Shown: in pieces, positions 14,611-31,140 of the stretch
Position numbering within the stretch: position 1 is the first letter of the stretch
Layout of the letters: each line of letters opens with the position of its first letter
DNA from: Candidatus Nanopusillus acidilobi
GTDB taxonomy: Archaea > Nanobdellota > Nanobdellia > Nanobdellales > Nanobdellaceae
DNA: 32,000 bases
Assembly: GCA_001552015.1 (NCBI GenBank)
Contig: CP010514.1
Location: 120,001-152,000 of the forward strand
Direction: 5' to 3'
Made by a program: the position numbers and the translations under genes
The notes under the pieces: generated by a model
Databases searched by the model: none
The model's input: the letters and a program-made list of their open reading frames with translations, nothing else
Told to the model about the DNA's origin: nothing

Positions 14611-16479
14611 ATGAAAACATTAATTATAAATTTAGATAATTTAGAATATAAAATTGTTGATATAGATTCTCAAGGTATTATTTCTTTAGGATTAAAAATA
14701 CATAATGAATATGAATCATGGAAAAAAGATGTTTATGATCCTTCAGTTCCCTTTATATTTGGTTTAGGTCCTTTTGTTGGAGGAAAATTATTTGGAGTTC
14801 ATAGAATGGTTGCAGTATTTAAAAGTCCATTAACAAAAACATTGCATTTTTCTTCAATTGGTGGTGTTGGGTTTAAATTTATGGGATCTGGAATTGATGA
14901 AATTGTAATTATTGGATATTCAAAAGAGCCTTCTGTAATTTTTATTTCTCCAAATAATGTAAAGATAGAACCTGTAAATTATGTAAATTCATATAAAAAT
15001 TATAAAGGTGTATACGCATTTTCAAGATATTTATTAGAAAAATATAATGATTTCTTTTCAAATTATAATGCAAGGGCAGTTGTTGTTGGAGAAGGATCTA
15101 TGTATACATATAATGGAAATTTATTTTCATTTGATATAATTAATGGTGAATTTAGAATTGGTTCTGAAGATTTTTCTGGAAGAGGTGGTGCAGGATCTTC
15201 ATTATTTAAAGGTCATAATATTTTAGGTATTGTTTCTGGCGGAAATTATAAATATAGATATGAAAAAGTAAATGATTTTCAATTAATAAATAAAATATTC
15301 TTAGAAAAATTTGGAAAAAGTTATATAGATGTTATTAATGAAAAGACAAAGAAATATAGATATGATCCAGAAACAGGATCTGGTGGAACTTTTGGAGAAA
15401 ATTATATATTATATAAAGAATTTTTACCTTTATTTGGATATAAATCAATATATTATCCAAAAGAATTAAGGAGAAAACATTATGAAAATATTATTGAATT
15501 ATTTTGGAAACCTTTCCAGGAAGAAGTATTTATAAAAAGTAAAACATGGTTTACATGTGGAGATTTATGTAATGTAGCATGTAAAAAGGTATATAAGGGT
15601 AAGAAAGTAGATTACGAACCTTTTCATTCTTTAGGTCCATTTATTGGTAATTATATATTTGAAGAAGCATTAAAATTAGTAGATATAGTAGATCAATATG
15701 GAATGGATGCAATTGAAATTGGATATTTAATTTCATGGTTATTTGATTTAATTGAAAACAAATTATTAGAACCTGGAGAAATTGGATTAAATGAATATCC
15801 AATATTTAATTTTGAGAATTTTGATCCAAAAAATGATTCATATAAAAATTCAAAAATTGCAGAAAAAATTATTGAAGGATTAATTAAGAAAAATAATGAA
15901 ATATTATCTTTAATATCTGAAAAGGGAATAAGAATATCTTCTAAAATATTAAATGAAAAATATAAGGAAAGAATTAAGGATAATAAATTCAATGATTATG
16001 TTGTATATGTATCTTTTGGAAATGATGGATATATAACTCCAAATTTATATTGGAGTCCAGGTATGGTTGCCCCAATGTATGTCTTAGGAAAATATTGGAC
16101 AGATTATTCAAATTCATTTGAAAGACCTGAAATTTTTGCAAGATTTTCATATGGTAGAGCAATAAATGAATCTTTATTAGAAGATTTAGGAATATGTAGA
16201 TTTTATAGGGGAGCTTATGAACCTGTATTAGATATATTATATAAGGAAATTACTGGAAAAGATTTGGATAAAAATTTATATAAGGAAATTGCTGAATATT
16301 CAATAAAAGCAAATGCAGAACCAGTTCTATGGGAAAGTAAAAGAGCAATGGATCTTGTATCTACAATGTGCAGAGAATTAAATTCTAATGATTGGAAATT
16401 TGAAAAATATGAAGATTATGTTGAATGGTGGAAGGAATTTAAAGAAAGTTTAGATAAATATTTAGGATTAAAAAATTAA
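14611..16479 (+). CDS. Aldehyde:ferredoxin oxidoreductase (AOR) family protein, divergent
   Basis: N-terminal domain blocks are present: DPSVPFIFGLGPFVG, FKSPLTKTLHFSSIGGVGFKFMGSGIDEIVIIG and SGRGGAGSS...GIVSGG. A Cys cluster TCGDLCNVAC and a late LGICRF are also present. Length of about 622 aa matches AOR enzymes. Confidence 0.7.
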   Translation: MKTLIINLDNLEYKIVDIDSQGIISLGLKIHNEYESWKKDVYDPSVPFIFGLGPFVGGKLFGVHRMVAVFKSPLTKTLHFSSIGGVGFKFMGSGIDEIVIIGYSKEPSVIFISPNNVKIEPVNYVNSYKNYKGVYAFSRYLLEKYNDFFSNYNARAVVVGEGSMYTYNGNLFSFDIINGEFRIGSEDFSGRGGAGSSLFKGHNILGIVSGGNYKYRYEKVNDFQLINKIFLEKFGKSYIDVINEKTKKYRYDPETGSGGTFGENYILYKEFLPLFGYKSIYYPKELRRKHYENIIELFWKPFQEEVFIKSKTWFTCGDLCNVACKKVYKGKKVDYEPFHSLGPFIGNYIFEEALKLVDIVDQYGMDAIEIGYLISWLFDLIENKLLEPGEIGLNEYPIFNFENFDPKNDSYKNSKIAEKIIEGLIKKNNEILSLISEKGIRISSKILNEKYKERIKDNKFNDYVVYVSFGNDGYITPNLYWSPGMVAPMYVLGKYWTDYSNSFERPEIFARFSYGRAINESLLEDLGICRFYRGAYEPVLDILYKEITGKDLDKNLYKEIAEYSIKANAEPVLWESKRAMDLVSTMCRELNSNDWKFEKYEDYVEWWKEFKESLDKYLGLKN

Positions 16480-18107: not shown

Positions 18108-18800
18108 ATGGGTCTTTTAGAAACATATAAAAAGTCTATTGATTTAATAAAGGATCATATAATAGAGAGTTTAATATTTGGTATATTATTTTATATATTA
18201 TGGAGCTTATTATTTTTATTACCATTATTAGGAGCAGTTATATTTTCATATTTTTATCCAAGATTAGCTAATTGGTATTATACAAAAGTTACTGGAGAAA
18301 ATATTAATCCAGATTATAAAACATCATTTTTATCATTATTAATACCAAATCTATTATTTTCTATTGGTATAACTATAATATTAGCAGTATTAGTTAGTAT
18401 TTTAATACAGCTAGGATCAACTTTTTCAAATATATTGAATATCAATAATCTACAACAATTAATATTATTAGGTTTATCTAATTTCCATACTTTTACATAT
18501 GTTCTTTTAGGAATAATTATTGGTATAATTATAATAATAGTTGGTGGAATAATTTGGTTATTATTATTATATAGTATTTATGGATCTATATTAGGAAAAG
18601 TAAATAAATTATTAATAGATGCTGAGAAGTCTTTAACATTATTTGCATACTGGCTTTTATTTTATATTATTGCAGATATAATATTATTAATAATTGGTAA
18701 AATACCTTTATTGGGAAATATAATTGTAATAATTTTAAATATAATGATTGTATATCCAGCATTAAATCTAATATTACTACTAAAGGCTAAAGAATTATAA
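18108..18800 (+). CDS. Polytopic membrane protein, paralog A (unknown family)
   Basis: About 5 hydrophobic segments. It shares YY.KVTGENINPDYKT.FLSLLIPNLL and YGSILGKVNKL blocks and the LLKA.EL C-terminus with the next gene. Confidence 0.6.
   Translation: MGLLETYKKSIDLIKDHIIESLIFGILFYILWSLLFLLPLLGAVIFSYFYPRLANWYYTKVTGENINPDYKTSFLSLLIPNLLFSIGITIILAVLVSILIQLGSTFSNILNINNLQQLILLGLSNFHTFTYVLLGIIIGIIIIIVGGIIWLLLLYSIYGSILGKVNKLLIDAEKSLTLFAYWLLFYIIADIILLIIGKIPLLGNIIVIILNIMIVYPALNLILLLKAKEL
18273..18356 (+). repeat. Near-identical 84-nt patch shared with 18993-19076 (copy 1)
   Basis: Aligned by eye there are 2 mismatches in 84 nt (18283 c/a, 18324 t/g), while most of the rest of the two genes is clearly diverged. 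Confidence 0.85.
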
Positions 18801-18830: not shown

Positions 18831-19511
18831 ATGGTATTAGATATATATAAAAGGGCATTTGAATATATGGGAAAAAATTTTGCAGATAGTATATTATTTG
18901 TTATTTCAGCAGCAGTGCTAGGGTTCTTATCTATAGCATTACCAATATTAGGAGCAATAATATATTCATACTTCTATCCAAATGTAGTAGCATGGTATTA
19001 TAAAAAAGTTACTGGAGAAAATATTAATCCAGATTATAAAACAGCATTTTTATCATTATTAATACCAAATCTATTAGCATCTATAGGAATGATATTTATT
19101 CTATATGGTATTACTTCAGTATCAGTTGGATCTTTAGCATCAGCTGGATATATGAATCTATTTGGATCAACAAGTTATCAATATGTATCATATAATCCAA
19201 CATTAATAATTGTTGAATGGGTAATTATATTAATATCAATATTATTGAGTATATTACTTCTATATACATTCTATGGATCCATATTAGGAAAAGTAAATAA
19301 ATTATCAATATATTTTAAAAAATCAATGATATTGTTAGCATATATACTATTATATTCAATAATTGCATTATTAGTATTGGCTATTATATATATAATATAT
19401 GCATTAGCAATTTCAATAAATTATGGAGCAATGATATTTACTATTTTATCAATAATATTTTTAGTGCCAACAGTAACATTAATAGCACTATTAAAGGCTC
19501 AGGAATTATAA
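18831..19511 (+). CDS. Polytopic membrane protein, paralog B (unknown family)
   Basis: Same architecture and conserved blocks as 18108-18800. It lies directly upstream of the S-layer gene. Confidence 0.6.
   Translation: MVLDIYKRAFEYMGKNFADSILFVISAAVLGFLSIALPILGAIIYSYFYPNVVAWYYKKVTGENINPDYKTAFLSLLIPNLLASIGMIFILYGITSVSVGSLASAGYMNLFGSTSYQYVSYNPTLIIVEWVIILISILLSILLLYTFYGSILGKVNKLSIYFKKSMILLAYILLYSIIALLVLAIIYIIYALAISINYGAMIFTILSIIFLVPTVTLIALLKAQEL
18993..19076 (+). repeat. Near-identical 84-nt patch shared with 18273-18356 (copy 2)
   Basis: See copy 1. A second patch, 18579-18612 versus 19272-19305, has 1 mismatch in 34 nt. Confidence 0.85.
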
Positions 19512-19614: not shown

Positions 19615-22302
19615 ATGGAAAAAAGATATAAGGAAAAAAATCTATATAGATATTTTATGATGAGAGGTAAAACTTTGGCAGTTTTGGGAGCATTAGGAGT
19701 ATTGGGAGTAGCTATATATTCTCAAGGAGCACCAACAATAGGTCAATTAGCACAGTCTATGAAATCACAACCAACATCATGGACAGTAGTAGTAGGAGCA
19801 AATGCCAATGCAGCAGATGTTGTAGGGGCTTCAAACATAATTGCAGCTTTAGAAACATTTACAGTACCATCTACTCAAAATGTAACAGTTAGTGTAAGTT
19901 CAACAAGTACATCTCAAGTTCCATCTGGTGTATATCCATTTTACTCCTCACAAGCACCTCTTTACTTAGGTAGTAATATAAGTAGTGTATATCCAGTATT
20001 ACAAGTAGGATCAGGATCATTCCAAATAAGTGGACAAAGTTATACATACGAAGCATATGTACAACCAGCATCAGATCAAATAACATTTAATAACTTTGGA
20101 TCAGGTTCAAACTACATACCATCAGTAGGAGTAGTATCATCAAATGGTCAATTATTGAATTTAACAATATATTTCTCTCCAGCTATAAATGTAACATCCT
20201 TAACTACAAGTCCACAAGAAATAACAGTATTAGGTACATCATATTATCTATCATATAACAGTAATAATGGTTATATGTATTTGGTACCAGCTGCAAACAC
20301 ATTGACATTAAATGTTGGGCAATCAACAACAGTAGATGGATTAACAATTCAATTAGCTAATGTTGTAAAAAATCAACAAGGTACTTGGTATGCTGTATTA
20401 AATATTAATGGACAACAATATACAATACAAGTAGGTACATCACAAGTTATTGATGGAGTAAATGTATATGTAGCAAATGCATTTGCATCTGTTTTAACAT
20501 CCTCAAGTGTTAGTGCAGGTTATGCAACAATTGTTGTATCACAGGGTGGATATCAATTCTCATTAAGTTCTTCATCAACTGGAGCTAGTGTATATACATC
20601 TAGCGGTACTGCAGTTAATGGAGTAACTGTTACAACAAATTATAACTCTACAACGCAAACACTATCAGAATTACAATTTACATTTAGTTTAACATCTACA
20701 CAACCAAATGGACAATATGCATTATTAGCAGGACAGTCTTATCAATTACCAATATTTAGTGGATATGAATTATATGTTGCACCAGTTCAATTACCAACAG
20801 GTCCATTAGCATTACAATTAACTCCAAGTGGATCTAGTCAATATACATTACAATATGTTGATGCTGTAACTGGAAATACCGTATCAATACCTCTATATGT
20901 AAGTTCAAGCGGTGCTTTACAATTATTAACTACATCATCTCCAGGATTTGTAGGAACAATTACAAATAGTCAAAGTGCTGTACCAGGTGCATCTCAGTTA
21001 ACTTCAGTAAATGTATCACAAGGAGGATACTTTGCAGTAGTAGATGCAGATTTACAACAAACATATATATTCCAAGTACAATCAATAAGTACAACAACAA
21101 GTGGTGCATCTGCAACATTATATAATTATGTCACTGGACAAACTATAACAATATATAGTGGTGTACCATTTACAGTAGGATCAATAACATTAACACCTGC
21201 TATATCTTCATCTGGTGTAACACTTTCAGGTTCTGGATTGTATTATTCAAATACAGGTTTAACATTGTATGAAGGATATGATAATTATGTGTCATTAAGT
21301 TATTCAACTTCAAGTCCAGGTACATTGAATGTAACATTTGCTAAGAATTATGAACCTACAGGATGGTCTAATGAAATTATAGAAATACCATATAATACTT
21401 CAGGATTTAGCAGCTCTATAAGTATAGTACAACCAACTTTGACAGGTTATTCTGTAGGTGGAAGCTTATTAGGAAATGTAAGTATATCATCAGCGGGTAC
21501 AGCAACTCTAAATGAAACATTATCAGGATCTCCATCAAACGTAACTGCAACAGTATATGTAAATGGGTCATCTACATCCAGTGGAACTCTACAAGGATCC
21601 ATAACTGAAACACCAGTAATTACTCCAGAACAAGTTAGCTTAGTAACAACTGGAAGTAATACATATGCATACTTAGATAAAAATGGTGTATACTTAGTAG
21701 AAACTACATCATCTTCATCTAATCCAACAGTACAATTATATGCACCATCACAACCATTAACATTTAATGTAGGATTAGCACCATCAGGATACACACCATC
21801 AACAACATCTACATCAACAACTCAAACAGTAACAGTATCAGTACCAACTCCAACATCATTAATTGGAAAGGTAATATTAGATACACAAGTAACACCATCA
21901 ATGAGTGATTTAATATTAGTAGGAGGTCCAGCAGTAAATACATTAACAGCACAGGCAGTAATACAATATGTATCAAGCATGAATGCAACATTGGGTCAAG
22001 AATTACAATCATACGCAAATAGTCAAAATGGATATATATATGGTTCAGAATTAGCACCAGTATTACAACAATTAGGTATACCATTTGGACCAGGTATGGC
22101 ATTAATAATGTCATCAACACTATATCCAAACACATTAGTAATATTTGGATGGTACGGAAATGATACAACACAAGCAACAGAATTATTCGCAAACTACTTA
22201 GTAAATAATGTAGATGCAAGCGTATTCAATAATGCAACAGTAGTAGAAGTAAACGATCAACAAACAGTAAACGGATATCCAGCAGCAACACAAATACAGT
22301 AA
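19615..22302 (+). CDS. S-layer protein
   Basis: A signal-like segment GKTLAVLGALGVLGVAIYSQGA is present. The N-terminal motif is WTVVVGANANAADVVGASNIIAAL and the C-terminal motif is DLILVGGPAVNTLTAQ, as in euryarchaeal S_layer_N/S_layer_C domains. The centre is long, Ser/Thr/Gly/Val-rich and beta-rich, with many N-x-S/T sequons and an STTSTSTTQT linker. An alternative start exists at ATGATG 19657. Confidence 0.8.
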   Translation: MEKRYKEKNLYRYFMMRGKTLAVLGALGVLGVAIYSQGAPTIGQLAQSMKSQPTSWTVVVGANANAADVVGASNIIAALETFTVPSTQNVTVSVSSTSTSQVPSGVYPFYSSQAPLYLGSNISSVYPVLQVGSGSFQISGQSYTYEAYVQPASDQITFNNFGSGSNYIPSVGVVSSNGQLLNLTIYFSPAINVTSLTTSPQEITVLGTSYYLSYNSNNGYMYLVPAANTLTLNVGQSTTVDGLTIQLANVVKNQQGTWYAVLNINGQQYTIQVGTSQVIDGVNVYVANAFASVLTSSSVSAGYATIVVSQGGYQFSLSSSSTGASVYTSSGTAVNGVTVTTNYNSTTQTLSELQFTFSLTSTQPNGQYALLAGQSYQLPIFSGYELYVAPVQLPTGPLALQLTPSGSSQYTLQYVDAVTGNTVSIPLYVSSSGALQLLTTSSPGFVGTITNSQSAVPGASQLTSVNVSQGGYFAVVDADLQQTYIFQVQSISTTTSGASATLYNYVTGQTITIYSGVPFTVGSITLTPAISSSGVTLSGSGLYYSNTGLTLYEGYDNYVSLSYSTSSPGTLNVTFAKNYEPTGWSNEIIEIPYNTSGFSSSISIVQPTLTGYSVGGSLLGNVSISSAGTATLNETLSGSPSNVTATVYVNGSSTSSGTLQGSITETPVITPEQVSLVTTGSNTYAYLDKNGVYLVETTSSSSNPTVQLYAPSQPLTFNVGLAPSGYTPSTTSTSTTQTVTVSVPTPTSLIGKVILDTQVTPSMSDLILVGGPAVNTLTAQAVIQYVSSMNATLGQELQSYANSQNGYIYGSELAPVLQQLGIPFGPGMALIMSSTLYPNTLVIFGWYGNDTTQATELFANYLVNNVDASVFNNATVVEVNDQQTVNGYPAATQIQ

Positions 22303-26170: not shown

Positions 26171-26602
26171 TTATCTATATATTGTTTTTATTCCCATAAG
26201 TTCTAATATTGAATTTTGATGATTTTTTGCAAAACCTTCAGCATGTTTTATTATTTTTCCATAAGCTTTTTCATGAAAGTCTATTCCCCATACAACAATT
26301 ATATGCGTGCTATTAAATATAGAAAATATAATCCTTATATCTCTATTTAATCTATCTGAAAATAGTGGAATTAATAAATTTCCTATTTTTATTGGTTTAC
26401 CTAATCTTTCTATTTTTCCTCTAAGTTCTTTAAGAGATTCAAATCTATCAAAAATTATTTTATATTGATTATTTAATTCTTTTTTAAGATCTTTTGTCCA
26501 TTCTTCCAAAAATTTTATATTATTTTTAATTTTTTCATAATTTACCAAATTATTACCAAATAATATAAAAATACTATATGTTCTACTAATCAATATTGCC
26601 AT
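26171..26602 (-). CDS. RelE/ParE-superfamily toxin-like protein with N- and C-terminal extensions; no adjacent antitoxin ORF
   Basis: The core FLEEWTKDLKKELNNQYKIIFDRFESLKELRGKIERLGKPI...LFSDRLNRDIRIIFSIFNSTHIIVVWGIDFHEKAYG follows the RelE/ParE pattern (F..w.k.lkKL....., g.pL....l...Rl..dyRiiY.i.....i.vl.ig.H...Y). The first 25 or so residues are hydrophobic and outside the fold, so the start is uncertain. Confidence 0.5.
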   Translation of the reverse strand: MAILISRTYSIFILFGNNLVNYEKIKNNIKFLEEWTKDLKKELNNQYKIIFDRFESLKELRGKIERLGKPIKIGNLLIPLFSDRLNRDIRIIFSIFNSTHIIVVWGIDFHEKAYGKIIKHAEGFAKNHQNSILELMGIKTIYR

Positions 26603-26646
26603 ATTAAAATAATGTTTTTACGAATTTTTTAATATTATAAAGATCA

Positions 26647-26653
26647 TTTAAAT
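26647..26653 (+). promoter_or_regulatory. TATA box (TTTAAAT) of paralog 1, centred about -27 from the ATG
   Basis: catTTTAAATtctttttatatccattataatttATG. The spacing implies a leaderless transcript. Confidence 0.5.
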
Positions 26654-26676
26654 TCTTTTTATATCCATTATAATTT

Positions 26677-27417
26677 ATGAGTGAATTAAAACAACTTAGA
26701 TTGGAAGATATGATTGAACTTTTAGCTAGCAAAGACATTAATGGTAAAGCTAGGAAATTAGCTTGGAGTATGACTGATTTTTTAGAGTATCTATGGAATC
26801 AACGTCTTCCAACAAAATATCTTATAATAAAAATAGATATAAAATATATAGAAGTTCTAAAAAAAGGGACATATGGACACGTAATATATAATGGAGAAGC
26901 CAAAGTTGTTAAACCATCAAAAATGTATGAATTTAAGTATGAAAGGAATTGTAAATCATGTCTTGAAACTTTATATGATAGCGAATATAATAGTATGGAT
27001 AATAATTACTCTTTTGATGTTAATAAGATAAAGGGATTAAAAATAGATCTTCTTAAAATGGAGAGTATAGCAAGAATTGTGGAAAGAAGTATGATTCGTT
27101 TATATAGCGCAATTACACACTTTCGTTTGGATCATTCAGAAAAATATTCAGAAGTATTTGGATATATTGAAATAAAAAGATTTAACTATGGAAAAATACG
27201 CGGGGAAATTAAAAATACGAAATTTAGTAGATCTTATATACGGGATGAATATAAAAATATAGTAGGCTATAAAATTTCTACTCCAGAAAATGAAATAAAT
27301 AAATATAATAGAAATAATGAAGATGAATTATATTATCCAAGAAGTTATAAATTTGAATTTGCAGTTTGTAAAGATATAAGTTATATAAATCTCTGTAATT
27401 TTTCTAGATTTTTTTAA
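26677..27417 (+). CDS. Unassigned family, paralog 1 (246 aa, most divergent; N-terminal insertion and C-terminal extension)
   Basis: It shares with paralogs 2-4 the MS(D/E) start, K.YEFKY, CKSC, Y.SEYNS.DNNY and a YPRSYKFEF block. No TM or signal peptide. Confidence 0.7.
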   Translation: MSELKQLRLEDMIELLASKDINGKARKLAWSMTDFLEYLWNQRLPTKYLIIKIDIKYIEVLKKGTYGHVIYNGEAKVVKPSKMYEFKYERNCKSCLETLYDSEYNSMDNNYSFDVNKIKGLKIDLLKMESIARIVERSMIRLYSAITHFRLDHSEKYSEVFGYIEIKRFNYGKIRGEIKNTKFSRSYIRDEYKNIVGYKISTPENEINKYNRNNEDELYYPRSYKFEFAVCKDISYINLCNFSRFF

Positions 27418-27468
27418 TCTTTCATTAATTTTCTCTAATATATTTTCCTATTCTTCTATATGAGAAAA

Positions 27469-27500
27469 ATATTTAAATGTTTCTATAATTATTATACTCT
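27469..27500 (+). promoter_or_regulatory. Conserved BRE/TATA promoter module of paralog 2
   Basis: atatTTAAATgtttctataattattatactct-ATG. TTTAAAT at 27472-27478 is centred at -26 from the ATG. The module is nearly identical to 28222-28253 and 28984-29014. Confidence 0.6.
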
Positions 27501-28181
27501 ATGAGTGATCAAACATCATTACACAAAACCTTGGAAAAACTACTTTTAGATGCTACTAAATTATCAATTGGTTTAGGTGATCAGGGAAGACATCTTTGGA
27601 TATTAGTAGATATAAAAGATGATAAATATGAGGGGGGAGGTTTTACTGGTAATTTCCAAAATTATATGTCTAATTGTGATCTAATTAAGTGTAAATTATA
27701 TCCGGAGAGATATAATATTGATCAAAGTATTTGTGATTCATGTTTTCAAGATATATATTACAGTAGATATAATAGCGATGATAATAGTTATATGGTTATT
27801 TTTAATATTCCTAAAAGAGGTGAGAGGGAAGAGCTAGAAGGGCTACAGGATCTAATAAGAAATATGGAAATTGAGATTATTGAATCATACTATAAAAGTT
27901 TATACTCATATCCAAATTCTTTAAAAAATTATTCAAATCCAAGATTATTAATGTATTTTGAAAGAAAGGGGCAAGATCTTGATATGATATATAAAGAAAT
28001 AAATGAAATTAATTTTGCGCAGCTTCCTACTCTGAGGGAAATTGGATCTGAAGATAAACCAATTTTTTCACTTGCTGCAATATATGGAAAGAAAGAAAAT
28101 ATATCTGATAAAGATGTTGATGTAGCTCATTTAGAATTTCCAAAGAATTTTAGATTTAGTTTAATGGTATATAAAAAATAA
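27501..28181 (+). CDS. Unassigned family, paralog 2 (226 aa)
   Basis: Shared blocks: MSD, LG.QG..LWI, CDSC..DIYYSRYNSDDNSYM, MYFERKG, EIGSEDKP, and FPKNFRFSLMVYKK at the C-terminus. It has an extra Cys pair (CDLIKC) upstream of CDSC. Confidence 0.7.
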   Translation: MSDQTSLHKTLEKLLLDATKLSIGLGDQGRHLWILVDIKDDKYEGGGFTGNFQNYMSNCDLIKCKLYPERYNIDQSICDSCFQDIYYSRYNSDDNSYMVIFNIPKRGEREELEGLQDLIRNMEIEIIESYYKSLYSYPNSLKNYSNPRLLMYFERKGQDLDMIYKEINEINFAQLPTLREIGSEDKPIFSLAAIYGKKENISDKDVDVAHLEFPKNFRFSLMVYKK

Positions 28182-28221
28182 ATTGTAAATTCTTTTAAAA
28201 TTTTAATCTTTATTATAAAAG

Positions 28222-28253
28222 ATATTTAAATATTTCTATAATTATTATACTTT
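28222..28253 (+). promoter_or_regulatory. Conserved BRE/TATA promoter module of paralog 3
   Basis: atatTTAAATatttctataattattatacttt-ATG. TTTAAAT at 28225-28231 is centred at -26. Confidence 0.6.
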
Positions 28254-28889
28254 ATGAGTGATCAAAATATCCCTGGGAGATTAGAAGATATACTTAGGAG
28301 GGTTAGTGAATATTCATTTGAATTAGGTAAGTGGGGAAAGGTTATTTGGATAAATTTAGAAATAAAAAAGGATGATAGGGGATACTATGGAAAAGGCAGT
28401 GCTGTTAGCCCACTAAAAGTGTATGAATTTAAGTATGGAAGTAATTGTAACTCAAGCTCATGTGTTCGAGATATATATTATAGTAGATATAAAAGTTATG
28501 ATAATAATTACATGATTGCTTTTATTAAATATGTAGGAGGGGATATGGATAAAATAAAATATATGGTAAGAGATATAGAAAGTGAGGCTTATGACTTATA
28601 CAATGAAATTAGAAATTCATATTTGGATCCTTCAAGAGATCATTTAGTATCAGTATACTTTAGAAGGGATACATCGAGCTATAAGAAGATAACTAAAGAA
28701 ATTAAAAAAGGTATTATCTTTGAAAAACCTCCGGCTTTAAAGAAGATTGGATTTAAAGATCAACCAGCTTTTATACGTTCTGCTCTAGTAGAAAAGAAGA
28801 CAAATGAATATAATAATAGAGAAGAAAGTAAAAATGAGTTAGATTATCCAAATAGTTTTAAATTTAGTTATATAGTCTATGAAAAATAA
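28254..28889 (+). CDS. Unassigned family, paralog 3 (211 aa)
   Basis: Shared blocks: MSD..RLEDIL, LGKWGKVIWI, YGKG, KVYEFKY, CNSSSC.RDIYYSRYKSYDNNYM, VYFRRD..SYKKITKEIKKGIIF, KIGFKDQP, and YPNSFKFSYIVYEK at the C-terminus. Confidence 0.7.
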   Translation: MSDQNIPGRLEDILRRVSEYSFELGKWGKVIWINLEIKKDDRGYYGKGSAVSPLKVYEFKYGSNCNSSSCVRDIYYSRYKSYDNNYMIAFIKYVGGDMDKIKYMVRDIESEAYDLYNEIRNSYLDPSRDHLVSVYFRRDTSSYKKITKEIKKGIIFEKPPALKKIGFKDQPAFIRSALVEKKTNEYNNREESKNELDYPNSFKFSYIVYEK

Positions 28890-28983
28890 ATTAAGGCTTT
28901 TATAATATTTTTATTCTTTAATTATATTTCTCTATTTTTTTGAATATAATTTATGCGTCTTTTATTCATTTTATCATATTAAG

Positions 28984-29014
28984 AATATAAATGTTTCTAT
29001 AATTATTATAATCT
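28984..29014 (+). promoter_or_regulatory. Conserved BRE/TATA promoter module of paralog 4
   Basis: aaTATAAATgtttctataattattataatct-ATG. TATAAAT at 28986-28992 is centred at -26. Confidence 0.6.
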
Positions 29015-29635
29015 ATGAGTGACATAAAAAATTTATTCAGAAAACTGGATGATATACTTCACGATATGGTTAAATATTCATTTACCTTAGGTAATTGGGG
29101 AAGATATACTTGGATAGAAATTTATATAGGATATAATGGATATGGTGGGAAAGGTTTTGTTGTTAAGCCATGGAAAATATATGAATTTGAGCATCAAAAG
29201 GTTTGTAATTCATGTTTTGGGGATATATATGTTAGTGAATATGATCGTATAAATAGAAGTTATAATATTTATACTAATGATTATATAAGCAAAGTGAAGG
29301 AAAATAAGAAAGAAATAGAAAATATAATAAGTAATATAGAAACTCAGGCTATGTATGTATATGATATAACTGTGGACTCATATTTAGATCTTTTAAAAAA
29401 TTATTCGAAAGTATTAATATACTTTAGAAGGGATATATTTGACTATAATAAGATAATTGAAGAAATTAAAAATAGTATTATGTTTGGACAACCTATTAAT
29501 AAAGTTGGACCTAAGGATCGACTAAGTTATAGATTTATAGCTCTAGAAGAAAAAGAAATAAGTAAATATGGTGAGGAAAGTGAATTATCTTATCCAGAGA
29601 ATTACAGATTTAGTTTTATGATATATGAAAAATAA
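29015..29635 (+). CDS. Unassigned family, paralog 4 (206 aa)
   Basis: Shared blocks: MSD..KLDDIL, LGNWGRYTWI, GGKG, KIYEFEH, CNSC.GDIYVSEY, IYFRRD..DYNKIIEEIKNSIMF, KVGPKDR, and YPENYRFSFMIYEK at the C-terminus. Confidence 0.7.
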   Translation: MSDIKNLFRKLDDILHDMVKYSFTLGNWGRYTWIEIYIGYNGYGGKGFVVKPWKIYEFEHQKVCNSCFGDIYVSEYDRINRSYNIYTNDYISKVKENKKEIENIISNIETQAMYVYDITVDSYLDLLKNYSKVLIYFRRDIFDYNKIIEEIKNSIMFGQPINKVGPKDRLSYRFIALEEKEISKYGEESELSYPENYRFSFMIYEK

Positions 29636-29637
29636 AT

Positions 29638-30624
29638 TTATAAAAATTTTGTTAAATTTTCTTTAAATTCTTTTGCAGTTTCTTCAGGTATTGATGAAAT
29701 AACATATTCTAAATGACAAATTTCCATATAACCTGTATCAAATAAAGGTCTTTGTGCTATTTTAATAATTGGATATGATCTTGATTCTTTTAATAATGTT
29801 GTATCAAATATAACTAAATTAAAATTCTCATACAATTTTTCATATGTTACCAAAATATTATATAAGTTTTTAATGAATTCTTCAAATTTATTTTGAGATA
29901 AGAAAAATATGCCAAAAGTATCAATATATCCAATTAATTCATTATTTCTAAATGGAGCAAATGATGACCATAATTTAATTATTCCATCCAATATTATTCT
30001 TTCATTTAATTGTTTTTCAAAGTTAAAATAATCTTCTATAAAGAATTTTTTATATTTATCAAAATATTTGCTAGATTTGTCTAGATAAATCTTAAAATAA
30101 TTTGTTGGTTCTTTTTCAATCAATATTTGAAAATGTAAATGTTCCTGTGATGCACCTGCAGGAAATCCTTTATTTAAATTAATAAATATATATTTATAAT
30201 CTCCTTCAGGTACCCTTTCATAGAATTCTTTTATTAGCATAAATGAATTATAAAGATCTAAATAATCTATTTGAGAGAAATTCTTTACATGTTTTTTATA
30301 ATTTGGAACTAATACTGCATGATATTTTCCATATGGATATTTATTTGAAAAGAGGACAGAATTTCCATTATATATTTTCTTTGAAAAATCAAAATCTGGA
30401 GCTTCATTATCAGGATCACAAAAAGGACATTTTGATTTTTTTGAATAAATTTTTCCATAATTTCTTGGTTTATTTTTTATAGATTTATTTATTCTTACCT
30501 TGAAATTAGTTATTGGGTCGATTCTTTCTTCAATTATAAATCTTTCAAGTTCATTATTAAAAAAATTCCTTACATTATATTCCTGAGATATTAATTTTAT
30601 GTCTTCATTATATATTCTTTCCAT
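29638..30624 (-). CDS. Galactose-1-phosphate uridylyltransferase-family (GalT/HIT superfamily) nucleotidyltransferase
   Basis: RIDPITNFKVRINKSIKNKP (compare RxNPLTGxWxxxSxxRxxRP), CPFCDPDNE (Zn-site CxxC), SVLFSNKYPYG, and NLNKGFPAGASQEHLHFQI (the H-x-H-x-Q active-site motif) are present. A second half-domain LWSSFAPFRNNEL follows. The stop lies 2 nt from the stop of convergent paralog 4. Confidence 0.75.
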   Translation of the reverse strand: MERIYNEDIKLISQEYNVRNFFNNELERFIIEERIDPITNFKVRINKSIKNKPRNYGKIYSKKSKCPFCDPDNEAPDFDFSKKIYNGNSVLFSNKYPYGKYHAVLVPNYKKHVKNFSQIDYLDLYNSFMLIKEFYERVPEGDYKYIFINLNKGFPAGASQEHLHFQILIEKEPTNYFKIYLDKSSKYFDKYKKFFIEDYFNFEKQLNERIILDGIIKLWSSFAPFRNNELIGYIDTFGIFFLSQNKFEEFIKNLYNILVTYEKLYENFNLVIFDTTLLKESRSYPIIKIAQRPLFDTGYMEICHLEYVISSIPEETAKEFKENLTKFL

Positions 30625-30699: not shown

Positions 30700-31140
30700 T
30701 TATGAATGAATTATTGGTGATTGCCTATTTTGTTGATGATAGGCATCTAATTTTTGGCATTCACCTTTTTCAGATAGATATTTCCTAAAGATACCAAGTA
30801 TTTCATCATAATCTTTTTTTATTAAATTATAATAGGCTACAGATTTATCTTTACTACTATTATTTTCATCAATTTTATATATTTCGTTTTCAATTTTATC
30901 TATTTTGTCCAATATTTCTCTTCTTTTATTTTCATCTTCTTCGTATAAAAAAACTATAGTATGCGCATATTCTGATAATGTTAAGATTGTTTGTTTTAGT
31001 TCTCTGATATTATTAACTACTTCGGTTCTCGCTTTTGTATAATTTAATATATAATTGTTAATAAGATTTTTAATTTTTTTAAAATCTATAATTTCTTCTT
31101 TATTTTTTTCTTTTATTATTATTTCATCTAAATCATCCAT
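30700..31140 (-). CDS. Hypothetical coiled-coil protein
   Basis: ORF only. It is Glu/Lys/Ile/Asn-rich with heptad-like segments (REILDKIDKIENEIYKIDE). No recognisable family. Confidence 0.4.
   Translation of the reverse strand: MDDLDEIIIKEKNKEEIIDFKKIKNLINNYILNYTKARTEVVNNIRELKQTILTLSEYAHTIVFLYEEDENKRREILDKIDKIENEIYKIDENNSSKDKSVAYYNLIKKDYDEILGIFRKYLSEKGECQKLDAYHQQNRQSPIIHS

Follow-up and report, generated by a model that had tools for sequence, protein, structure and literature searches.

Why does the small genome of Candidatus Nanopusillus acidilobi hold four divergent copies of an orphan gene side by side? The copies lie in a 32,000-nt stretch of its chromosome (contig CP010514.1, positions 120,001 to 152,000; G+C ~23%), which we call the window. 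Nanoarchaeota are obligate ectosymbionts with genomes of ~0.6 Mb. Little is known of the ways in which they recognise their hosts, exploit them or defend themselves against them; fast-evolving surface proteins had been highlighted by earlier studies of populations. We find that the four genes belong to a real, expressed orphan family which occupies a fixed locus, has expanded in tandem together with promoter cassettes and turns over by birth and death. Its proteins undergo near-neutral surface evolution on a conserved core, under selection for open reading frames.

A tandem array of four paralogs

The four genes are exact matches to AMD29645-AMD29648 (Nps_00805, Nps_00810, Nps_00815 and Nps_00820, here copies 1-4 or c1-c4), all annotated as hypothetical, on the 605,887-bp contig CP010514, which is the closed genome of Wurch et al. 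2016 (PMC4935971); N. acidilobi is placed in Nanobdellota, family Nanopusillaceae. As the initial annotation of the window had described from the letters alone, they are four open reading frames (ORFs) of the sizes given in Table 1, all on the plus strand, with start-to-start distances of 824, 753 and 761 nt. Their paralogy, proposed there from shared motif blocks, lies well past chance: the pairs match by BLASTP at E values from 6e-42 (c3-c4, 40% identity over the full length) to 1e-6 (c1-c2, the weakest pair), and a hidden Markov model (HMM) of the family scores each copy at E≤3e-54. All four can be aligned over their full length at 27-43% identity, with copies 2 and 3 at ~36%. The motif blocks themselves are present, with two corrections: copy 2 ends in VYKK rather than YEK, and the LG.WG...WI block is missing from copy 1. 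That copy also carries an N-terminal insertion and is extended at the C-terminus by a segment with two further Cys.

The proteins had been described as free of transmembrane segments and signal peptides, and this holds: no 19-residue window exceeds 0.7 on the Kyte-Doolittle scale, and neither feature is listed for the four genes in the genome paper (PMC4935971). The Cys pair shared by the copies is conserved inside Nanopusillus. Since it is missing or substituted in 8 of the 16 more distant members (P0070, P0071, P0073, P0074, P0075, P0078, P0079 and P0080; P numbers are family member proteins), we rejected it as a family-defining Zn or other metal site or disulfide site.

A narrow family at a fixed locus

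A profile search, suggested in the initial annotation as a check, delineates a narrow family: HMMER with the profile of the four copies retrieved 26 members at E≤0.001 among 1.84 billion representative proteins. Word-seeded searches of 5.8 billion clusters returned 38 and 45 members, none with a Pfam domain or an informative name, and left the interval between E values of 1e-17 and 0.1 empty. All placeable members are on Nanopusillus/Nanobsidianus-type contigs, and a scan of GTDB species representatives gave no confirmed locus. The family is thus sharply delimited and confined to hot-spring Nanoarchaeota of family Nanopusillaceae. Four single-copy-type members from other lineages (P0064, P0071, P0074 and P0075) carry an internal duplication of ~25 residues, spanning the 'NKIIEEIKESIIFG' helix-strand segment, which brings them to 222-250 aa (alignment A3).

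The family also matches nothing that has been named, as had been suspected. No Pfam or NCBIfam match was returned for single copies and 20 members (E≤10), PHROGs gave no significant match, and PDB sequence profiles gave chance-level matches only (cerato-platanin, E=0.23; a match to 4lid 'A-100' at E=0.1 disappeared with a broader profile). None of the four copies matched PADLOC-DB at E≤1, which leaves the suggested link to immunity or defence without a tie to any known system. The locus tags are not mentioned in the literature searched. A viral or mobile-element origin was rejected, as the family has no relative in IMG/VR viral contigs and no significant PHROG or BFVD match, and its locus lies in a syntenic stretch of the chromosome.

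Wherever a contig shows the context, the family sits between a divergent RelE/YoeB-like gene, which itself adjoins the gene for asparaginyl-tRNA synthetase (AsnRS), and a convergent GalT/HIT-like gene. The latter, Nps_00825 in the window, has weak Pfam DUF4931_N/HIT and NCBIfam galT matches; it is 97-99% identical in most N. acidilobi-type strains and 92% in L003 (L numbers are related contigs or loci), with a ratio of nonsynonymous to synonymous substitution rates (dN/dS) of 0.1-0.3.

Birth and death of copies

What varies at this site is the number of genes. More distant relatives have a single copy of 212-220 aa (Nanobsidianus stetteri Nst1, APJZ01000001; L028/29, L030 and L033/34), and in their supplementary table Wurch et al. 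list a single Nst1 gene, Nst1_159, as the counterpart of the whole Nps set of four (PMC4935971). The N. acidilobi lineage has 1-4 copies in no fewer than five arrangements, with flanks mostly ~97-99% identical: c1-c2-c3-c4 in the window; c1-c2-c3 in L001-L004 and L008; a frameshifted c1, then c3-c4, in L009 and L012; c2, then a frameshifted c4, in L017; c2 with GalT immediately after it in L019; and c1-c2-c3 with a frameshifted fourth-slot allele, 49% identical to the window c4, in L032. The variation in copy number between strains that the initial annotation had proposed to look for is therefore real. In L009, L012 and L018, the sequence of copy 1 is divided between two reading frames, and copy 4 is absent, frameshifted or replaced by the 49%-identical allele in other strains.

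The frameshifts lie at L017 881-1420, in the c1 region of L009, L012 and L018, and at L032 5998-6751, that of the L017 c4 being a 1-nt deletion in a GGGG run; the frameshifted copies may be real pseudogenes or homopolymer assembly errors. L005 was rejected as a same-strain replacement, since its GalT-like gene is only 88% identical and thus belongs to another lineage. Gene conversion between paralogs is only suggestive: the c2 alleles of L017 and L019 contain a c4-like tract (alignment positions ~496-630), with 0.73-0.75 identity to c4 versus 0.76-0.81 to c2.

Copy 4 is ~50% identical to the single-copy orthologs and c1-c3 only 28-40%; in a neighbour-joining tree, copy 4 nests within the single-copy radiation, and c1, c2 and c3 are three derived clades. 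Because copy 4 is both closest to the single-copy orthologs and nested among them, it is likely the ancestral gene, from which copies 1-3 would derive through tandem duplication.

Promoter cassettes and conserved gene ends

Each copy is preceded by its own promoter-like cassette (Table 1), in which a TTTAAA or TATAAA element starts 29-30 nt before the ATG and is centred ~27 nt upstream of it. The archaeal TATA box lies ~26 nt from the transcription start. Measured against this norm, the spacing suggests that each copy is transcribed separately and that the transcripts are essentially leaderless; the initial description of the copies as individually promoted is thereby supported at the level of sequence. 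The window contains the cassette core TTTCTATAATTATTATA three times (0.02 expected), each time ahead of one of copies 2-4, and the core is found in exact form before non-first copies in 18 related contigs.

The cassette is part of a 49-nt block, including the start codon, that is 82-94% identical among copies 2-4 and 65% for copy 1 (repeat family D4), whereas the coding sequences of copies 2-4 are much less alike. The 3' end of the ORF is a conserved DNA block as well (repeat family D3), so the best-conserved DNA of the array lies at the 3' ORF end (D3) and in the promoter with the 5' ORF end (D4). Conserved gene ends of this kind could mediate unequal recombination.

Table 1 Positions of the family copies, their promoter-like cassettes and the boundary genes in the window.
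Feature	Position	Strand	Remarks
Solo RelE/YoeB-family gene, Nps_00800	26171-26602	-	divergent from copy 1; left boundary
Promoter-like block of copy 1	26641-26676	+	TTTAAA 26647-26652; diverged cassette version, 65% identity to reference copy
Copy 1, Nps_00805	26677-27417	+	246 aa, pI 9.1; most derived copy
Putative promoter/leaderless cassette of copy 2	27465-27500	+	TATA-like TTTAAA 27472-27477, 29 nt before ATG
Copy 2, Nps_00810	27501-28181	+	226 aa, pI 5.1; extra CDLIKC loop
Putative promoter/leaderless cassette of copy 3	28218-28253	+	TTTAAA 28225-28230; 94% identical to copy-2 cassette
Copy 3, Nps_00815	28254-28889	+	211 aa, pI 9.1
Putative promoter/leaderless cassette of copy 4	28979-29014	+	TATAAA 28986-28991
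Copy 4, Nps_00820	29015-29635	+	206 aa, pI 5.8
GalT/HIT-like gene, Nps_00825	29638-30624	-	convergent with copy 4, 2-nt gap; right boundary

Expression

At least two of the copies are made as protein, according to the published proteome, which covers about one third of all proteins (PMC4935971). Copy 3 (Nps_00815) accounts for 0.343% of spectra and, out of 656, ranks 80 by spectra, 73 by MS1 and 42 by MIT, and copy 1 (Nps_00805) accounts for 0.138% of spectra, at rank 186 (PMC4935971 Supplementary Data 1). Proteomics had been named in the initial annotation as a check on expression.

Rates of evolution

The fast divergence noticed among the four copies extends to their orthologs. Between strains, family proteins are 68-92% identical, with the AsnRS and GalT-like flanks at ~98%, and between species their identity falls to 40-52%, versus 94-97% for AsnRS. 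We calculated dN/dS with our own Nei-Gojobori scripts and complemented these values with tree-based parsimony counts. When strains are compared with the window, the dS of the family (0.06-0.14) is similar to that of the flanks and the difference lies in dN, which is 0.05-0.11 versus ~0.01, or 5-10 times that of the flanks. Pairwise dN/dS among strains is 0.55-0.86 for the family, 0.08 for AsnRS and 0.15 for the GalT-like gene; the tree-based values are 0.58-0.83, 0.08 and 0.17, with 1.0 for the RelE-like gene. Between species, the family has dN/dS of 0.5-0.9, versus 0.05-0.07 for AsnRS. The alleles of copy 2 are 68-91% identical among strains, with pairwise dN/dS up to 1.5, which is not significant.

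These rates do not mean that constraint is gone. In columns conserved among the paralogs, dN/dS is 0.55 and significantly below 1 (p=1e-5), and the ratio differs little between helices, strands and loops. In simulations with the genome's base composition, the chance that a 206-codon ORF stays open is P=0.004 after 10% random change and drops to P<2e-4 from 20% upward, and the copies are still open at 26-39% nucleotide divergence. Taken together, the open ORFs and the conserved columns below 1 indicate genes that are kept by selection and in which most positions are free to change.

An immunity role and diversifying selection of the family, as the initial annotation drew from the retention of four divergent copies, would be conjectural on these rates: dN/dS is 0.55-0.9 and never significantly above 1, and other genes in the window evolve equally fast. 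Positive selection was likewise rejected with the tree-based counts, which did not significantly exceed 1 in any class of conservation or secondary structure. Single-copy conserved orthologs under purifying selection throughout had been named as the pattern that would contradict such a role; syntenic single-copy orthologs do exist, in Nst1 and the other distant relatives, but strong purifying selection is absent.

Predicted structure and conserved residues

The AlphaFold2 model of copy 4, built from a 61-sequence alignment, is confident (predicted local distance difference test, pLDDT, 91.8; predicted TM-score, pTM, 0.88; all five models at least 87.8); that of copy 3, from a 37-sequence alignment, has pLDDT 81.5, and its five models disagree. 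The copy 4 model runs from a long helix (2-24) through two strands, a short helix and two further strands to a second long helix (98-123), which is followed by a strand, a short helix and strands 154-160, 169-181, 189-192 and 197-205. The product is accordingly predicted to be a soluble protein of 25-30 kDa with two long amphipathic helices, several short ones and about nine interleaved beta-strands. An internal duplication of two half-domains was considered and is unsupported by sequence (hhalign E=0.16).

Structure prediction followed by Foldseek, also suggested at the outset as a way to find a remote relative, revealed no known fold. Foldseek gave no significant match in the PDB (best E 0.007 with the copy 3 model and 0.063 with the copy 4 model, TM-score at most 0.32), and the BFVD search gave no structure match. 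The weak Foldseek neighbours are MHC-I/EPCR-type platforms, LolA-like carriers and aromatic prenyltransferases, with EsaG lower down; none of these is usable as evidence.

Only Y83, P194 and F199 (copy 4 numbering) are invariant in 48 aligned sequences, E109 being nearly so, and the residues kept across the family are mostly hydrophobic or aromatic. The family shows no catalytic signature, and no enzyme-like Foldseek match was obtained with the confident copy 4 model. The remaining sequence changes almost neutrally, and so does net charge, which lies between -11 and +13 across the family and between -1 and +9 inside one orthogroup. Such swings argue against a conserved nucleic-acid-binding surface, and nucleic-acid binding was therefore deemed unlikely.

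The neighbouring RelE/YoeB-like gene

The 143-aa product of the RelE/YoeB-like gene matches the YoeB structures 6l8e and 7bwf by phmmer (E=6e-4) and has 91 homologs, all in Nanopusillus/Nanobsidianus. Its position raises the question of whether the family is a non-canonical antitoxin or neutraliser of this putative toxin, with the extra copies serving as spare or variant antitoxins. The gene is a constant neighbour, and the divergent pairing is kept in every genome with context; according to the window ORF list, no conventional antitoxin ORF, and no other candidate antitoxin, adjoins it, and no contig has an intact RelE-like gene that lacks an adjacent family member. Both genes are also fast-evolving (dN/dS 0.3-1.0 for the RelE/YoeB-like gene). 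However, the entire region keeps its gene order, so adjacency alone says little. Type II antitoxins such as RelB and YefM/Phd are operonic with their toxins, whereas the family genes lie divergently on the opposite strand, outside any operon, both in the window and at every related locus. The family proteins, at 200-246 aa, are two to three times the size of such antitoxins and have no recognisable DNA-binding or antitoxin domain (ribbon-helix-helix, helix-turn-helix, YefM/Phd), and there are up to four of them per toxin gene. In L005, L022 and L032, where the RelE/YoeB-like gene is broken, the family genes beside it persist intact, except for the frameshifted fourth slot that accompanies three intact copies in L032. 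Where YoeB has its catalytic Glu, the aligned residue is Ile, in a loop that is the most variable part of the protein and sometimes carries insertions. Nor was the RelE-like protein detected in the proteome (PMC4935971 Supplementary Data 1). We consider an antitoxin function decidedly unlikely.

Comparison with known systems

In behaviour, the family comes nearest to tandem immunity-gene strings and to the tandem paralog clusters of staphylococci, but its membership in either fails the tests run, as there is no cognate toxin, homology or signal peptide. The EsaG/DUF600 strings at the type VII secretion locus of S. aureus (PMC9484751) are likewise strings of divergent cytoplasmic paralogs without enzymatic motifs, which vary in copy number by strain and whose conserved gene ends could mediate recombination between paralogs. 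With the copy 4 model, no other of the 50 PDB matches listed reaches the Foldseek 'prob' of the EsaG structures 8gup and 8guo (0.41-0.54), although the match is not significant (E=0.4, TM-score 0.30-0.39, rmsd 10-12 Å). Unlike in EsaG and polymorphic-toxin arrays, no polymorphic toxin gene with a secretion domain is near, and the window region and the related loci contain no large toxin gene, the neighbours being the AsnRS, RelE/YoeB-like and GalT/HIT-like genes, and the family has no match to Pfam DUF600 or another immunity family. We know of no type VII secretion system or system like contact-dependent growth inhibition in this archaeon.

In the staphylococcal lpl/Csa clusters (DUF576; PMC2568036; PDB 4big, 4egd), the conserved unit resembles that of the array, consisting of the 3' ORF end, the intergenic region and the next 5' end. 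Their products, however, are secreted lipoproteins with a signal peptide and a lipobox, both of which the family proteins lack, and Foldseek 'prob' is only 0.08-0.15 at a TM-score of ~0.2. A likeness to the alpha1-alpha2 platform of MHC class I and EPCR assumes a shared antiparallel sheet with two long helices. Partial alignments of ~115 residues reached a Foldseek 'prob' of up to 0.97 with the first model, but with E no better than 0.007 and a TM-score of ~0.3 (0.31 at most with either model), and the better model gave weaker matches, with E no lower than 0.06 and 'prob' up to 0.16. The elements are also ordered differently, each helix of the family preceding its strands, and there is no significant half repeat.

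Possible functions of the array

The explanation that we favour, though we put it somewhat short of an even chance, is that the family is a non-enzymatic binder of a quickly changing host, virus or toxin partner, undergoing birth and death at a conflict interface. The ancestral state was a single gene between the solo RelE/YoeB-like and GalT/HIT-like genes. In the N. acidilobi lineage, this gene was duplicated in tandem, every unit with its own putative TATA-box/leaderless promoter cassette, and the array has since evolved by birth and death, as seen in the subsets of copies, the frameshifted copies and the 49%-identical fourth-slot allele. The protein would act as a binding scaffold whose surface tracks a fast-changing partner, be it a factor of the host (Acidilobus), a virus or a toxin, and several divergent, separately transcribed copies would widen or shift the binding range. 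A number of observations weigh against this. Copies 2 and 4 (Nps_00810 and Nps_00820) were not detected in the proteome (PMC4935971 Supplementary Data 1), and the frameshifts imply that individual copies are dispensable. In no partition is dN/dS significantly above 1, the variable columns having 0.91 (p=0.83 for >1). Other lineage-specific genes evolve equally fast (S-layer 0.77-0.91, membrane paralog 0.70, hyp146 ~1.1, Yip1-like 0.5-0.7), so an arms race is unnecessary to explain the rates: generally weak constraint accounts for them as well as diversifying selection does, and the family belongs, at its fast extreme, to a common class and does not stand alone as an outlier.

The main rival builds on these same rates and has a real, if clearly minor, chance of being correct: the family would be a weakly constrained lineage-specific protein with an ordinary role and no arms race, shaped by drift, weak purifying selection and unequal recombination in small clonal symbiont populations. 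The dN/dS of 0.55-0.9 fits, as do the values of 0.5-1.1 for the S-layer, membrane paralog, hyp146, hyp123 and Yip1-like genes in the same window; pseudogenised copies exist, and the D3 and D4 blocks would serve as recombination substrates. Harder to account for in this way are up to four separately promoted copies in a 0.6-Mb genome, promoter cassettes that remain exact across strains while the coding regions diverge, fourth-slot alleles that are 49% identical, a species-level difference, in a 98%-identical background, and the abundance of copy 3. That abundance would suit a carrier or platform for small hydrophobic ligands, in which the sheet and two helices might form a groove for lipids or host-derived molecules. 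The conserved residues are mainly aromatic or hydrophobic, the non-significant Foldseek neighbours are mostly groove or cavity proteins (MHC-I/EPCR/ZAG, LolA-like, aromatic prenyltransferases), and N. acidilobi is without almost all primary biosynthesis (PMC4935971). However, the structural matches stay non-significant with either model (E at least 0.007 and 0.06), and a conserved ligand would usually impose stronger constraint than is observed, which makes such a function very unlikely. Finally, the high dN/dS, the frameshifted copies and the two copies missed by proteomics could be taken to mean that the genes are non-functional, decaying duplicates. This reading is largely refuted and scarcely credible: the ORFs have stayed open at a divergence where random substitution would leave them so with P<2e-4, paralog-conserved columns are under purifying selection, the promoters are conserved, and the proteins of copies 1 and 3 are detected.

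Other genes in the window

The S-layer protein gene (Nps760, 19615-22302, plus strand) has a dN/dS of 0.77-0.91, as fast as the orphan family; its product is 72-82% identical between strains, at 98% for AsnRS and RNase PH. Directly upstream of it lie two tandem genes for multi-pass membrane proteins of 230 and 226 aa (18108-18800 and 18831-19511, plus strand), which are 45% identical (BLASTP 2e-45) and have no Pfam match. Between strains, the first is 93% identical with a dN/dS of 0.26, and the second 76-78% with 0.70. A Lys/Glu-rich protein of 146 aa (30700-31140, minus strand) has a weak PADLOC match to the C-terminus of LmuA (Lamassu) at E=1.5e-4, which is probably compositional; its dN/dS between strains is ~1.1, and no ortholog was detected in the two more distant loci compared (L027 and L028). 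The window also encodes an aldehyde:ferredoxin oxidoreductase-like protein (AFOR_N, AFOR_C; 14611-16479, plus strand), in an organism reported to be without respiration and ATP synthase.

Implications for nanoarchaeal symbiosis

The array is an uncharacterised instance of fast-evolving tandem paralog families with variable copy number. To the surface proteins it adds a soluble, abundant family without a detected fold match, which changes as fast as they do and differs in copy number between co-occurring strains. By extension, and improbably on present evidence, the family could represent a new structural class of cytoplasmic 'interface' proteins in ectosymbiotic Nanoarchaeota: expandable, cassette-like binders of host or virus factors or of toxins (for example RelE-like ones), whose repertoire would help to set which host strains can be used. 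If the family does interact with a host, virus or toxin, it would provide a tractable marker of, and a handle on, symbiont specificity; if it has no such role, it would show the extent to which lineage-specific sequence under weak constraint persists even in a 'streamlined' genome.

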